Assembly: GCA_041661545.1 (NCBI GenBank)
Contig: JBAZUH010000001.1
Location: 544,148 to 608,147 of the forward strand
Reading direction: 5' to 3'
From: Candidatus Staskawiczbacteria bacterium
GTDB lineage: Bacteria; Patescibacteriota; Minisyncoccia; Minisyncoccales; Staskawiczbacteraceae
Length of the DNA stretch: 64,000 nt
This document shows positions 14,567 to 59,936 of the stretch, one piece after another (positions within the stretch are counted from its first letter, which is position 1; each line of letters begins with the position of its first letter). Under the pieces are notes generated by a model. That model did not search any database, was not told the origin of the DNA, and saw only the letters and a list, made by a program, of their open reading frames with translations. The translations under genes and the position numbers were made by a program.

Positions 14567-14588
14567 TTTTTTTGTTTTATTTTTATAC

Positions 14589-14724
14589 CGCTTAAGCGGT
14601 AGGGGTGACCGCTTAAGCGCTTTTAGGCACCGCTTAAGCGATACCGCTTAAGCGCTTTTAGGTACCGCTTAAGCGATACCGCTTAAGCGCTTTTAGGTAC
14701 CGCTTAAGCGATACCGCTTAAGCG
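14589..14724. repeat. Array of 8 perfect CGCTTAAGCG palindromes (alternating 21/14-bp spacing)
   Basis: Copies start at 14589, 14610, 14631, 14645, 14666, 14680, 14701 and 14715. The higher-order unit is ACCGCTTAAGCGATACCGCTTAAGCGCTTTTAGGT (35 bp). The array lies directly upstream of the 13811-14566 gene. Confidence 0.95.
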
Positions 14725-47727: not shown

Positions 47728-48435
47728 TTATGTTTTTTTGTAAATATTATTTATTATTTCTTTTAGGTCGGCTCCTTTTTTCATTAATGCTGAGGCTAAT
47801 GCAAAAACATCAGCAGTTACTTTATTTTTAAAATTGTCTGTATAGATAACCAGTCCCGTTAATAGGCATTTGCTAGATTCTAATTTTAATTCTTCAAATA
47901 AATTAACAATAATCTCTGAAAGAGACGTGCCTTCTATTAAATTAATTTTACCAAATTTTTGATTATCTTTCGAGTTATCAATGTTTAAGACCGGTGAATC
48001 AAGCAAAAATCCAAAAGAGTCTAATTTTTCAGCAAGCTCTTTTTGATAATCTTTAACCCCAACAGTAATAATTAAATCTGGTTTGGTTTCAGAAAAATAA
48101 AAAGCAATGTTCTCTTTTTTAATATTACCACCATCTAAAGTGAGATGTATTTTTAAAGCTTCATCATTTTTCTCATAATAAATTTGCGATATCTGCGCAA
48201 CTTTATTTGGTATAGATATTACAAAGTTTTTTGGATAAGAAATAAAATCTAAAGAAGGAGACAAAAATTTTAAATTTTCAGGCAAATTGTCTATGAGCAA
48301 GTTTACATTTTTGCCTAAATCTTTTAAAGTATAAAAAAGAGCCAGCGTAGCAACAATTGCTTCAGGCTCTTGCGAAGTTATTAAATAAATATTTTTAGCT
48401 TCGGCTATTAAATTTTTTGCTTCTTGATTTTCCAT
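47728..48435 (-). CDS. DHH-family (NrnA-like) fold protein with degenerate catalytic motifs
   Basis: 235 aa. Layout ..IYLITSQEPEAIVATLAL.., NIDNSKDNQKFG and LLTGLVIYTDNF parallels DHH motifs I-IV, but the Asp/His residues are replaced. Confidence 0.4.
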   Translation of the reverse strand: MENQEAKNLIAEAKNIYLITSQEPEAIVATLALFYTLKDLGKNVNLLIDNLPENLKFLSPSLDFISYPKNFVISIPNKVAQISQIYYEKNDEALKIHLTLDGGNIKKENIAFYFSETKPDLIITVGVKDYQKELAEKLDSFGFLLDSPVLNIDNSKDNQKFGKINLIEGTSLSEIIVNLFEELKLESSKCLLTGLVIYTDNFKNKVTADVFALASALMKKGADLKEIINNIYKKT

Positions 48436-48442
48436 AGGCTTG

Positions 48443-48500
48443 CCCGGTTAAATAATTTTGCTTCACAAAATTAAAATCTAAGAGATTTTATTTAACCGGG
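48443..48500. repeat. AT-rich three-way-junction element B1
   Basis: CCCGGTTAAATA ... TATTTAACCGGG (perfect 12-bp closing stem) enclosing hairpins ATTTTG/CAAAAT and AAATCT/AGATTT. Confidence 0.65.
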
Positions 48501-48534
48501 TGAATTAATATACCCTATAAAATTTTGATAAATA

Positions 48535-49074
48535 ATGCAAGTGGATAAGAAATACACAACAACAAGTTTTAAACAAACACAAAAGCTTGGAAAAGATTTT
48601 GCCCTTCAGCTACATTCGGGGCAAGCCAAAAAAATACCACAAAAAACGGCTACGGTCTTAACATTGCACGGAGATTTAGGTGCAGGCAAGACTACATTTT
48701 TGCAGGGTTTTGCAAAAGGACTGGGTGTTAAAGAAAAAATATTAAGCCCAACATATGTAATTTTGAAACATTACAAAATTACAGAATATGGAATTAAGTA
48801 TTTAGAAGCTAGAATAAATTCTAAATTCAAGATACAAGATACAAGATTCACAGAGCTATACCATTTTGATTGTTATAGACTAAAAAACGAAAAAGATGTT
48901 TTAGAATTAGGTTTTAAAGAAATAATTTCTAATCCTAAAAATATTGTAGCAATTGAATGGCCAGAAAGAATAAAAAAAGTTCTCCCAAAAAATATAATTA
49001 GAATAAATTTTAAAATGGTAGGGGAGAACAAGCGAGAAATTACAATAAAAACTAACCTTAAAATATCAGGTTAA
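48535..49074 (+). CDS. tsaE: tRNA t6A biosynthesis ATPase TsaE
   Basis: 179 aa with LHGDLGAGKTTFLQGFAKGLGV and ..YHFDCYRL... Carries an insert of about 30 aa. Confidence 0.8.
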   Translation: MQVDKKYTTTSFKQTQKLGKDFALQLHSGQAKKIPQKTATVLTLHGDLGAGKTTFLQGFAKGLGVKEKILSPTYVILKHYKITEYGIKYLEARINSKFKIQDTRFTELYHFDCYRLKNEKDVLELGFKEIISNPKNIVAIEWPERIKKVLPKNIIRINFKMVGENKREITIKTNLKISG

Positions 49075-56525: not shown

Positions 56526-57812
56526 ATGAGCGTTAAAGAAATAATTCACCCGATTAAATACCGCGAAGCGTTGATTTCGTTTTTAACGAAATCATTTAAC
56601 CGGGTAAAAAAATTTATACCGAAATTTTTGATAAGAATTTATCATTATAAATTAGCTTTGTTGGGAGCTGTGGTTTTTGGTTTTCCTGGCCTTAATAAAA
56701 ATATAAAAATAATAGGGGTAACAGGCACCAGTGGGAAATCAACTACAGTAGATTTTGTAACCAGAATTTTTGACGAGGCAAATGAAAAGGTGGCTTCGGT
56801 GTCTTCTATTAGATTTAAAGTTGCAAATAAAGAATGGGAGAATAAATATAAAATGACAATGCCTGGCCGTTTTGTAATTCAAAAACTATTGAGCCAGGCA
56901 AAAAAAGCAGGTTGTAAATATGTTGTTTTAGAGGTTACATCAGAGGGAATAAGACAATTTCGTCATAAATTTATAAATTTTGATTGTGTGGTTTTTACTA
57001 ACTTAACACCCGAACATATTGAAAGTCATGGAGGGTTTGAAAATTATAAAAAAGAAAAATTAAAATTATTTAAAGAAAATAAAAATATACATATTATAAA
57101 TATAGATGACAAAAATTCAAAAGAATTTTTGGATATTCCAGCTAAACAAAAAATTGAATTTTCTATCAAAGATGCAGAAAATATAAAGTTTGATTCCAAC
57201 TTAATTAGTGGGTTTAATATTTATAATGCTTTATCTGCTATTTCTGTTGCAAGAGTTTATGGGATTAGTTTAGATGTTTGTAAAAAAGCTTTAGAAAAAA
57301 TAAAAGTTATTCCAGGAAGAATGGAAGTGGTGTTAGAATTTCCTATTAAAGTTATTGTTGATTATGCGCATACCCCCGACCAACTTGAAGCAGTTTATAA
57401 AACATTTTCCGCCAAAGGCGGATCCGCCTTTGGCGGAAGCCTCGTTTGTGTTTTAGGTTCTTGTGGTGGGGGAAGAGACAAATGGAAAAGGCCTGTTTTA
57501 GGAGAAATAGCAAAAAAATATTGTAAAGAAATTATAATTACCAACGAAGACCCATATGACGAAGATCCACTTTCTATTATGAAAGAAATAGAAAGTGCCC
57601 TGTTGTATGACGGGGCTAATTCTAAGCACCATATGATTTTAGACAGGAAAGAAGCCATAGAAAAGGCAATAAAGCTTGCTAAACCTGGAGATGTGGTTAT
57701 AATTACAGGAAAGGGGTCTGAACCTTGGATGTGTCTAGAAAATGGACGCAAAATACCATGGAACGATAAGCAAATAGCACAAGATGCTGTTAAAAAATTT
57801 TTTACCCCGTAA
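56526..57812 (+). CDS. Mur ligase family protein (MurE-like)
   Basis: 428 aa with IGVTGTSGKSTT, DYAHTPDQLE, GGGRDKWKRP and GKGSE. Confidence 0.8.
   Translation: MSVKEIIHPIKYREALISFLTKSFNRVKKFIPKFLIRIYHYKLALLGAVVFGFPGLNKNIKIIGVTGTSGKSTTVDFVTRIFDEANEKVASVSSIRFKVANKEWENKYKMTMPGRFVIQKLLSQAKKAGCKYVVLEVTSEGIRQFRHKFINFDCVVFTNLTPEHIESHGGFENYKKEKLKLFKENKNIHIINIDDKNSKEFLDIPAKQKIEFSIKDAENIKFDSNLISGFNIYNALSAISVARVYGISLDVCKKALEKIKVIPGRMEVVLEFPIKVIVDYAHTPDQLEAVYKTFSAKGGSAFGGSLVCVLGSCGGGRDKWKRPVLGEIAKKYCKEIIITNEDPYDEDPLSIMKEIESALLYDGANSKHHMILDRKEAIEKAIKLAKPGDVVIITGKGSEPWMCLENGRKIPWNDKQIAQDAVKKFFTP
56548..56605. repeat. AT-rich three-way-junction element B2 (within the annotated 5' end of the Mur ligase gene)
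   Basis: ACCCGATTAAAT ... ATTTAACCGGGT closing stem (1 mismatch) enclosing CGC-GAA-GCG and GATTTCG-TTTTTAA-CGAAATC. Confidence 0.55.
57417..57448. repeat. Perfect 32-nt palindrome with GGATCC core (copy 4, variant), in frame in the Mur ligase gene
   Basis: TTCCGCCAAAGGCGGATCCGCCTTTGGCGGAA, encoding SAKGGSAFGG between DYAHTPD and the GGGRDK block. Confidence 0.85.
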
Positions 57813-58690: not shown

Positions 58691-59647
58691 ATGAAAATAC
58701 AAGACATATTTCAATTAGCAATAAAAATGGGCATAGACGCTGATTTTAGAGGCAGAGAAGGTGTAGAGAAATTATTAAAACGTAAAAAAGAGTTTTTTGA
58801 TAATCTTTCACAAAAAGATAAAGAAGAGTTTGACCAAGAAGCTTTGACAAACCCCTATATGGACTCGGGAGTTTATAATATTTCAGAAGACAAAGAGGTC
58901 AAAAAAGTTTTAGTGGGCATTGATATTGAGCCAGCAGAAATATTGCTAGCCAAGCAGTTGGGCGATATTGATTTGGTTATTGCTCACCACCCAGAGGGTA
59001 AAGGGTTGGCACAATTGGCAGATGTTATGCATTTACAAGCAGATGTTTTAAGCCAATATGGAGTGCCAATTAATATTGCAGAATCTTTAATGAAAATTAG
59101 AATTTCTGAAGTAGCCAGAGGAGTTAATGCTATCAACCATCAAAGAACCATTGATACAGCTAGAATTTTAGGAATTAATTTTATGAATTCCCATACGCCA
59201 TGTGATAATTTGGTTGCACGATACTTAAAAAATCTTATAGAAGAAAAAAAACCGGAAACTGTGGGAGAAATTACTTCTTTGTTAAAAGAATTACCAGAAT
59301 ATAAAGAAGCAATGAAAATTGGAGTGGGGCCTAAAATATTTGTAGGAAGCCCAGAAAATAGGGTTGGTAAAATTGCTGTTTCCGAAATTACAGGAGGCAC
59401 AGAAGGCTCAATAAAAATGTATGAAAAAATGTCACAAGCTGGCATTGGCACAGTAATTGCAATGCACACCTCCGAAGAACACAGAAAAGAAGCTGAAGCA
59501 GCTCACCTTAACATTATAATTGCAGGCCACATGTCATCGGATTCTTTAGGAGTTAATTTGCTTATGGATGAATTAGAAAAACAAGGAATTGAAATTGTAC
59601 CATGTTCAGGATTTACTAGATGTTCAAGAGTTCACCCAGTTAAATAA
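58691..59647 (+). CDS. NIF3/YbgI-like (DUF34) dinuclear-metal family protein
   Basis: 318 aa with DLVIAHHPEG, NSHTPCDN and IIAGHMSSDSLG. Confidence 0.55.
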   Translation: MKIQDIFQLAIKMGIDADFRGREGVEKLLKRKKEFFDNLSQKDKEEFDQEALTNPYMDSGVYNISEDKEVKKVLVGIDIEPAEILLAKQLGDIDLVIAHHPEGKGLAQLADVMHLQADVLSQYGVPINIAESLMKIRISEVARGVNAINHQRTIDTARILGINFMNSHTPCDNLVARYLKNLIEEKKPETVGEITSLLKELPEYKEAMKIGVGPKIFVGSPENRVGKIAVSEITGGTEGSIKMYEKMSQAGIGTVIAMHTSEEHRKEAEAAHLNIIIAGHMSSDSLGVNLLMDELEKQGIEIVPCSGFTRCSRVHPVK

Positions 59648-59697
59648 ATTCTGGCTTAGCCAGAATTTAAAATCCGAAGGATTTTATTTAACCGGGG
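59635..59697. repeat. AT-rich three-way-junction element B3 (supplies the stop codon of the NIF3-like gene)
   Basis: CCCAGTTAAATAAA ... TTTATTTAACCGGG closing stem enclosing TTCTGGC-TTA-GCCAGAA and AAAATCC-GAA-GGATTTT. Confidence 0.6.
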
Positions 59698-59731
59698 TAA
59701 ATAAATAATTTTTTGAGGGGATATTTATACA

Positions 59732-59764: not shown

Positions 59765-59936
59765 GTTATGAGGGGGTGCGAGATTCATCTCAAGGACATA
59801 ATATTTTGTAACGAAAGAGGAACAAGTATATACCTAAATTCATTGTCCGAATTAGGCTCGAGAAAAATCCAATATCGTTGCAAATTATTTACCCCCTCCA
59901 CAAAGTCCGCTCCGACGCACGTCGGAGCGGTTTTTG
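59765..59936 (+). ncRNA. Candidate small RNA of about 170 nt, family unknown
   Basis: Bounded by the promoter above and an intrinsic terminator (CCGCTCCGAC-GCAC-GTCGGAGCGG plus TTTTT, 59907-59935). Long-range pairing GAGGGGGT/ACCCCCTC and hairpin CCTAA(A)TT/AATTAGG. Confidence 0.4.

Follow-up and report, generated by a model that had tools for sequence, protein, structure and literature searches.

A 64,000-nucleotide stretch of a Candidatus Staskawiczbacteria contig (JBAZUH010000001.1, positions 544,148 to 608,147; hereafter the window) carries three copies, B1, B2 and B3, of a short palindromic element. The family to which these copies belong is real, non-random and mobile; its general kind is known, and its parent is unusual. 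The reading that we favor, and consider likely, is that B1–B3 are non-autonomous miniature mobile DNA elements, derived from a small cassette that encodes a GIY-YIG nuclease in the manner of MITEs (transposable elements of the miniature inverted-repeat kind), resembling the Rickettsia palindromic elements (RPEs) where they lie within genes, and mobilized as folded DNA by the nuclease of the cassette. We found no description of this element family in the literature searched.

The arms of the window copies follow the consensus CCC[GA][GA]TTAAAT...ATTTAACCGGG, and in each copy they form a closing stem of 13–15 bp around two hairpins. An earlier note on this DNA had described the three copies, with two hairpins in a closing stem, and had placed B1 between divergent genes, B2 in the 5' end of a Mur ligase gene, and B3 at the stop codon of a NIF3-like gene, which it supplies; all of this was confirmed. 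The arm consensus in that note contained one surplus T and as written had no relevant match; the consensus given here is the corrected form. When the 11-mer ATTTAACCGGG was sought with at most one mismatch, six matches were found in the window (G+C approximately 33%) against an expectation of 0.99, and all six are arms of B1, B2 and B3. The genes of the window resemble those of Patescibacteria. A covariance model of the element, run over the whole window with filters off, recovered only the same three copies (E ≤ 5e-8), the next match having an E-value of 0.012. All three fold into a closing stem plus two hairpins whichever strand is folded; their minimum free energies lie between -16.8 and -27.8 kcal/mol, and their z-scores relative to shuffled sequences between -3.4 and -6.6. 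B1 is composed of TG, the arm CCCGGTTAAAT, two hairpins (AATTTTG/CAAAATT and AAAATCT/AGATTTT), the arm ATTTAACCGGG, and TG; its right end is canonical (TG followed by AA) and its left end degenerate (CTTG, not TTTA). The arm-to-arm span of B2 is 56549-56604, and the 3' arm of B3 has one additional G. Note that the coordinates given for the three units in Table 1 count the terminal dinucleotides.

Table 1. Elements B1–B3 and the genes that carry or adjoin them, in window coordinates.
Feature	Coordinates	Strand	Description	Remarks
B1	48441..48502	.	62-nt miniature element, between divergent genes	covariance model 50.2 bits, E = 4e-12
B2	56547..56606	+	60-nt miniature element (CA + 56 + TA) at ATT^AAA	covariance model 75.7 bits
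B3	59633..59699	+	67-nt miniature element (CA + 63 + TA) at GTT^AAT	
DHH-family ORF	47728..48435	-		ATG at 48433-48435, 5 nt from B1 left end
tsaE-like ORF	48535..49074	+		32 nt downstream of B1 right end
Mur ligase family ORF	56526..57812	+	carries B2	full ORF starts at 56526
NIF3-like ORF	58691..59647	+	C-terminus and stop remodelled by B3	

The exact boundaries of the insertions were determined by comparison with orthologous genes. For B2 we compared the best 120 homologs of the Mur ligase. The homologs read M..KE[IL]I^KKFIPKF without an insert (^ marks the insertion point) in 117 of the 120 cases; two are N-terminally truncated, and the remaining one, P0020, is filled, having exactly 20 additional residues at the B2 point like the window protein. 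Filled DNA (the window and L118) differs from empty DNA (L119 and L120) by exactly 60 nt with no duplication, the empty sites reading gagataatc^aaaaaattt (L119) and gaattaatt^aaaaag (L120) and the filled site of the window reading gaaataatt-CACCCG...CGGGTA-aaaaaattt. The filled orthologs (window, L108 and P0020) are scattered in a tree of 121 sequences, each with many closer relatives that are empty. A similar result was obtained for B3. Orthologs of the NIF3-like gene end AGG GTT AAA TAA or AGG GTT AAT AAA TAA, giving the C-termini ...SRVK-stop and ...SRVNK-stop in L118 and L120, whereas the window reads AGA GTT [67 nt] AAT AAA TAA; in-silico deletion of 59633-59699 gives back AGA GTT AAT AAA TAA (SRVNK-stop). 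An empty orthologous site was also looked for in the case of B1, and none was recovered.

B2 and B3 thus end 5'-CA...TA-3' and are inserted at TT^AA without target duplication. Absence of a duplication is evident from the empty and filled sites of B2 and B3 and from the frames restored in L013 and L063. Among 56 oriented copies of the family, the flanks were TT in 44-46 of 56 and AA in 51-53 of 55, with an A-rich stretch upstream. Two forms of duplication were considered and rejected. A TTAA duplication like that of piggyBac fits the net length, but the flanks are TT-YA...TR-AA and not TTAA...TTAA; a TA duplication would give a net 58 nt where 60 were observed. Elements are also found nested in one another (L087) and within the GIY-YIG genes of L063 and L028. 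A search of 2.9 million viral contigs for carriage by phages yielded one miniature copy and no cassette.

The earlier note had proposed building a covariance model and searching other genomes, and this check revealed many further copies. Species-representative genomes were scanned with the pattern CCCGGTTAAAT-N28-52-ATTTAAYYGGG; more than 116 further loci were obtained among the matches listed, and the covariance model gave approximately 110 matches in 100 of the scanned loci. The hosts within the candidate phyla radiation (CPR) are Staskawicz-, Nomura-, Yonath-, Moran- and Nealsonbacteria, Saccharibacteria, and Paceibacterota; those outside it are Desulfobacteraceae and Desulfohalobiaceae, with single copies in metagenome-assembled genomes (MAGs) of a few other phyla. 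Several copies may be present per MAG. Each unit consists of 5'-YA, CCCNGTTAAAT, two hairpins, ATTTAACNGGG, and TR-3', the two arms together with the flanking TT/AA forming a stem of 13-15 bp that closes a perfect three-way junction. Arm-to-arm distances range from 48 to 72 nt with a sharp peak at 56, for whole elements of 52-76 nt. A shorter variant with 44 nt arm to arm (CCCCGTTAAAT ... ATTTAACGGGG) was observed at L244 3772-3815, approximately 6 kb from a cassette on the same contig.

The suggestion in the earlier note that the structure is under selection stands. Of 117 distinct interiors ascertained by the arms alone, 94 form exactly two hairpins (median z -3.4), nearly all of these having no unpaired base at the junction. 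When 19 copies of 56 nt were aligned without gaps, each of the 14 hairpin pairs was seen to have changed on both sides, and hairpin cells were paired in 92% of cases compared to 26-47% when the partners were slid; the aligned copies were picked for one register, which inflates the 92% value, whereas the count of 94 out of 117 is unbiased. The same note had called the hairpins of B1-B3 unrelated in sequence, and this proved overstated, because loose consensus forms are present family-wide (AATTTYGC..GCRAAATT, AAAATCC..GGATTTT, and a short GC-rich NNNGC..GCNNN) with abundant compensatory change. Compensatory variants also occur in the closing stem of copies outside the scan pattern (TCGGG..CCCGA, GTCAAAT..ATTTGAC, AAAC..GTTT, CCCTG..CAGGG). 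The G+C content of the hairpins tracks that of the host, being A/T-rich in CPR and G/C-rich in Desulfobacterota, while the arms are constant. Most cassettes have a T-A pair at arm position 4, where the miniature copies often have G.T or A.C. Judged from sequence comparison, then, the miniature fold is maintained, with invariant arms and covarying hairpins. Copies in unrelated genes of different genomes share interiors that are absent from the full-length unit (e.g. L054, L060 and L062), indicating that the miniatures spread as miniatures.

The cassette was found by seeking arms without a nearby partner. Units of 300-355 nt carry the same arms, of 11-13 nt, at both ends, and their sole gene encodes a protein of 84-87 amino acids that is UPF0213/Slx1-like and consists of the GIY-YIG catalytic domain alone (PF01541, 59 bits, E = 5e-16); among solved structures, the UPF0213 proteins EF2693 and BH0048 are closest to it, and SLX1 comes next. 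The unit at L080 114-409 contains an 84-aa open reading frame (ORF), MQYVYVLL...KRLKSYLTG-stop. At L063 6874-7224 the same gene is split by a nested miniature, and deleting this copy in silico restored the ORF. A metagenome scan for arms 245-275 nt apart gave at least 120 loci (L122-L241), 97 of which have an intact ORF of 80-92 aa, nearly always ending ...SYLTG-stop; the flanks of these intact units were TT in 78 of 97 and AA in 80 of 97. At E ≤ 1e-5 the protein family numbers at least 6267 members, most of them 84 aa in length, and the SYLTG C-terminus is found in 103 of the 120 best members. The cassette ORFs had a pN/pS of 0.24 with a pS of 0.81, indicative of purifying selection. Units of intermediate size were also found (140 nt at L024 and 145 nt at L037).

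The 3' arm of the cassette, AT-TTA-ACN-GGG-TRA, corresponds to the Leu-Thr-Gly-stop codons that follow TAT at the end of the gene (Y-L-T-G-stop), with the final base of the stop codon supplied by the A of the target, and the 5' arm, an inverted copy of this gene end, precedes the start codon by 7-31 nt in all but three odd cases. The variable arm position 4 is the synonymous third position of the Thr codon, and the variable terminal purine is the choice between TAA and TGA; over 121 units the stop codon was TAA in 59 and TGA in 44. Both arms were present in four of four homologs that had been ascertained by protein alone (L242, L244, L245 and L248), and among such homologs a change of the Leu codon from TTA to TTG is mirrored in the 5' arm (TTAAAT to TCAAAT), as is the ...LIG variant (by CCCGA). 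Synonymous sites are saturated at the pS given above and yet the arms are fixed, which argues that the arms are constrained at the DNA level. Distant homologs without arms end ...NYLEGA or ...NYLKN (L078 and L098). Because these homologs keep such ends, comparison of the sequences suggests that the arm was derived from the gene's own 3' end, the cassette being the earlier form. Full-length units end TA..TG (35), CA..TA (34), CA..TG (2) or TA..TA (8), and the miniatures are alike in this respect; a unit with CA..TA or TA..TG ends faces outward with TAA on one side and TGA on the other, and consequently its stem is mismatched at the base. The long hairpin of the miniatures and a small hairpin just inside the 5' arm of the cassette have an AATTT/AAATT base in common.

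Approximately 19 of about 126 copies (~15%) lie inside long ORFs of unrelated proteins, the hosts including ArgRS, TopA, UvrC, L23, HemK, HolA, ComEC and Mur ligase. These copies are read in one frame, [VI]HPVK[SY]...[QL]FN[RW]V, with the sole exception of L090, which is read in the other open frame. In AT-rich genomes, every copy in mid-ORF is free of stops and measures 57, 60 or 66 nt, and no copy that splits a gene by a frame shift or a stop was found among them. Such copies appear to be tolerated as inserts that are presumably translated, rather than being removed. Intergenic copies had no orientation bias relative to neighboring genes (16 in the same and 13 in the opposite orientation). 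In two fusion ORFs, P0178 and P0195, upstream genes (one for a PDDEXK_3-like protein, one for a 23S rRNA intervening-sequence protein) are read into the GIY-YIG ORF, the 5' arm of the cassette being translated as ...[YC]PVKQLEA...; full-length cassettes therefore land in frame in genes too.

The effects of insertion on host genes are apparent in the window. B2 begins 21 nt into the Mur ligase ORF and adds 20 codons in frame, HPIKYREALISFLTKSFNRV (HPIKY...FNRV), after residue 7. The public annotation of this protein (P0001, 394 aa) begins at an internal TTG at 56628, downstream of B2, and omits the conserved N-terminus MxxKExI-KKFIPKF that is present in 117 homologs; the gene call has probably been displaced by the insertion. 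The NIF3-like gene takes its last four codons (HPVK) and its TAA stop (59645-59647) from B3, so that its C-terminus is changed from ...SRVNK-stop to ...SRVHPVK-stop. It is the reverse orientation that brings GTT AAA TAA, and B3 accordingly terminates its gene. B1 lies within a divergent promoter region. A separate feature of the Mur ligase ORF is a perfect palindrome at 57406-57439, made up of TTCCGCCAAAGGCGGA and TCCGCCTTTGGCGGAA, which encodes seven residues (GGSAFGG) missing from 120 of 121 homologs. Other homologs have different short inserts at the same spot (SPSTTLRAS, KPSTLNP and ITSNQQDPKGTPAS), and short inserts near the N-terminus (GLGRRSLGEGGES and ACLPAGRVFQPNN) are also found among them. 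The palindrome may represent a second kind of coding palindromic mini-insert.

How the elements would move can be proposed from these features. The miniatures keep the arms and a compact fold, which would be the only needs of mobilization, and B1-B3 were probably mobilized in trans, moving (or having moved) as folded DNA, either single-stranded or cruciform. The cassette nuclease would recognize the arms in folded DNA and cut at the base of the stem, and host repair or ligation would complete the insertion. Slx1, the nearest characterized relative, is annotated in its PDB entry as a structure-specific endonuclease, which makes recognition of a structure by the cassette nuclease plausible. We put forward more tentatively, with somewhat greater doubt than belief, that the ~0.3-kb unit could be a previously unrecognized autonomous transposable element, the smallest known, with a structure- and sequence-specific GIY-YIG nuclease, and no DDE, HUH, serine or tyrosine enzyme, as its driver. 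In that event B1-B3 would be non-autonomous miniature forms of the unit, which would have repeatedly added a 20-residue HPVK...FNRV segment to essential proteins of Patescibacteria and crossed into Desulfobacterota.

Several observations weigh against derivation from, and mobilization by, the cassette. There is no GIY-YIG cassette within the 64-kb window, and miniatures are not enriched near cassettes (11 in 613 kb of cassette-bearing contigs). GIY-YIG enzymes are hydrolytic nucleases that are not known to catalyze strand transfer, and the integration step would therefore be without precedent. Beyond the arms, the likeness of miniature and cassette is limited to the AATTT/AAATT base, so that the case for derivation is mainly one of shared termini. 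In almost no unit are the first and last nucleotides complementary, a property for which we found no explanation and on which the proposed mechanism is silent. Templated correction within palindromes, rather than selection, could be the source of the compensatory changes. Note also that the scan pattern set one arm as CCCGG, which biases the statistics for arm position 4.

A potential alternative is that B1-B3 are elements of the type of repetitive extragenic palindromes (REPs), or of the REPINs built from them, moved by a Y1 (HUH) transposase like the REP-associated tyrosine transposases (RAYTs), with hairpin DNA being cut and re-inserted single-stranded next to a short target. The lack of target duplication, the short specific target and the hairpins all fit the 'peel and paste' mode of HUH enzymes, and Y1_Tnp genes are present in L119, L007 and L039 as well as in the Desulfobacterota loci L013, L055 and L099, their best match being the NCBIfam REP-associated tyrosine transposase, although below its cut-off (42-73 bits compared to 80). 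The likeness extends to short palindromic hairpin repeats that persist vertically, to folded and probably single-stranded DNA, and to insertion without duplication (PMC3116915, PMC3337134, PMC3733652). REPs are palindromes of 20-40 bp that end on one side in a conserved GTAG or CGTC tetranucleotide (PMC3733652), and a REPIN is made of two inverted copies of one REP plus a spacer (PMC3337134). The elements described here lack the GTAG or CGTC head that tags most REPs (PMC3733652), their ends being YACCCNGTTAAAT. Unlike those of a REPIN, their two hairpins are dissimilar both in length and in sequence, and it is the outer arms alone that are inverted copies of one another. They are also not limited to extragenic DNA and, where a single-copy RAYT gene would be flanked by the repeats, leave Y1 genes unflanked. 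In CPR, no elements flank the Y1 genes of L119, L007 and L039; those of L013 and L099 have been disrupted by at least four stop-introducing insertions, which makes these genes targets and not drivers. Furthermore, the GIY-YIG cassette has the very same arms as its ends, and its C-terminus is encoded by them. It was the finding of these cassettes that demoted the transposase explanation, which we now regard as unlikely.

The RAYT-like Y1 genes (HFH ... YIDLNPVRAGLV) of the Desulfobacterota MAGs are located at L013 897-1960, L099 4732-5266 and 6758-7615, and L055 2623-3042. At least four short copies of 48-50 nt are inserted in them at TT^AA, several bringing stops. The same insertions are common to L013 and L099, which are different MAGs, and one recurs in L055.

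The earlier note implied a transcribed or processed RNA element, and we therefore examined whether the three-way junction might act in the transcript, as a structured non-coding or cis-regulatory RNA, or as an intrinsic terminator or mRNA stabilizer. The strong covariation and the stable folds fit such an RNA. Read in one orientation, many copies have TGAA and a run of T after them, and in the orientation imposed by the scan (5' arm fixed as CCCGG) the arm mismatch becomes a G.U wobble. The two mismatch positions have independent polarity, however, and on neither strand are both wobbles. The unbiased orientation of intergenic copies, the copies in frame within ORFs and at the 5' ends of genes, the insertion polymorphism at orthologous sites, and the termini shared with the cassette do not support a function in RNA. 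A terminator scan does not flag the elements, and the NIF3-like gene has its own terminator-like hairpin at 59907-59930. When the window and 15 loci were searched against Rfam 15 in gathering and E-value modes, no family was found; only tRNAs reached the gathering score, and the overlaps with elements in E-value mode were sub-threshold and at chance level. An RNA element is in our judgment more improbable still than movement by a Y1 transposase.

Only slightly less credible than an RNA is the idea that the miniatures are immobile relics, left in place by internal deletion of full-length GIY-YIG cassettes. The common termini and the intermediate-sized units at L024 and L037 are what such decay would leave behind. 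It does not account for double-hairpin interiors that are absent from the cassette and recur at unrelated loci in different genomes, for a size distribution sharply peaked at 56 nt, or for miniatures nested in miniatures and in cassettes. Among the best 120 Mur ligase homologs, none has a full-length cassette at the position orthologous to B2.

It is highly improbable that the copies are intervening sequences removed from mRNA or protein so that host genes are unaltered, since, for all that the conserved stem has at the exact boundary of the element two mismatches that lie 4 bp from each other and CPR are known for insertions in rRNA and tRNA genes (PMC11270868), the mid-ORF copies in AT-rich genomes are stop-free multiples of three, in-silico deletion of elements gave no support for removal in those genomes, copies that bring stops end the ORF (as B3 does), and the stop-bearing copies in the L013 Y1 gene fit a pseudogene, the related L055 copy having an extra internal stop. 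Integron attC sites, which have R'' (RYYYAAC) 5' and R' (GTTRRRY) 3' of a hairpin and belong to cassette arrays, were also considered and rejected: GTTAAAT/ATTTAAC match the cores but stand the other way round, GTT being nearer the stem's open end, and the copies are dispersed in housekeeping genes rather than arrayed.

Derivation from the cassette, with mobilization as folded DNA, can be compared to several known systems. RPEs are reportedly ~100-150 bp in length, confined to Rickettsia, and without a known coding parent. The present elements resemble them as short palindromic repeats that lie between genes and, in frame, within unrelated housekeeping genes to which they add a peptide, that are patchy among orthologs, and that have no transposase of their own. 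They differ in being 52-76 nt in length with a perfect three-way junction, in occurring in Patescibacteria and Desulfobacterota, and in having ends in common with a GIY-YIG cassette. Like the bacterial MITEs (Correia/NEMIS and Nezha), they are non-coding, multi-copy miniatures whose terminal inverted repeats are common with a coding parent, they can supply stop codons, and they are nested in each other. Classical MITEs are DDE-derived and have target-site duplications, of which there are none here; the parent in our case encodes only an 84-aa GIY-YIG nuclease, and the interior is conserved as structure and not as sequence. The free-standing GIY-YIG homing genes (T4 seg and the I-TevI family) are similar in that a selfish GIY-YIG gene is the only cargo. 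Homing enzymes, however, exceed 200 aa, have DNA-binding domains, and act through recombination into one cognate site, whereas the cassette has a catalytic domain only, inverted ends, many unrelated TT^AA sites, and miniature derivatives. The inverted terminal repeats of parvoviruses (adeno-associated virus) are ~145-nt replication origins served by an HUH Rep, the nuclease cutting in the stem; with their T/Y-shaped hairpin, sequence-specific stem, and two palindromes valued for their fold, they provide an analogy of shape and not a homology.

Two further systems have been described in organelles and in CPR. Mitochondrial double-hairpin elements and repetitive hairpin-forming elements appear mobile, are found in intergenic regions, rRNA, and sometimes protein genes, and are kept in transcripts; they are organellar, with no conserved closing stem and no termini in common with a nuclease gene (PMC2800124). 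In how they behave within genes, the present elements match the mitochondrial double-hairpin elements. CPR rRNA genes contain GIY-YIG insertions that are unlike group I or II introns and seemingly not spread by homing, and also short insertions without ORFs (PMC11270868). Likened by description alone, these two kinds of insertion may be the same elements as those described here. One of the genes for which transfer out of Patescibacteria into other bacteria has been inferred encodes a GIY-YIG domain protein (PMC12455944), which agrees with the spread of the elements across phyla.

The family accounts for a group of small insertions by which gene calls in CPR genomes are distorted; examples from the window are the misplaced public start of the Mur ligase and the element-derived C-terminus of the NIF3-like protein. 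It implies that essential proteins of ultra-small bacteria tolerate, or exploit, a recurring 20-residue insert. A concrete hypothesis on function also follows for some part, at least, of the widespread UPF0213 family. If the nuclease does mobilize the element, this would represent a new transposition chemistry and a compact nuclease for a defined DNA junction.

Elsewhere in the window, at 14586-14724, repeats of ~35 nt, both tandem and inverted, were observed in a cluster; they are based on the palindrome CGCTTAAGCG (GGTACCGCTTAAGCGATACC units), and the cluster is weakly matched by the covariance model of the element.

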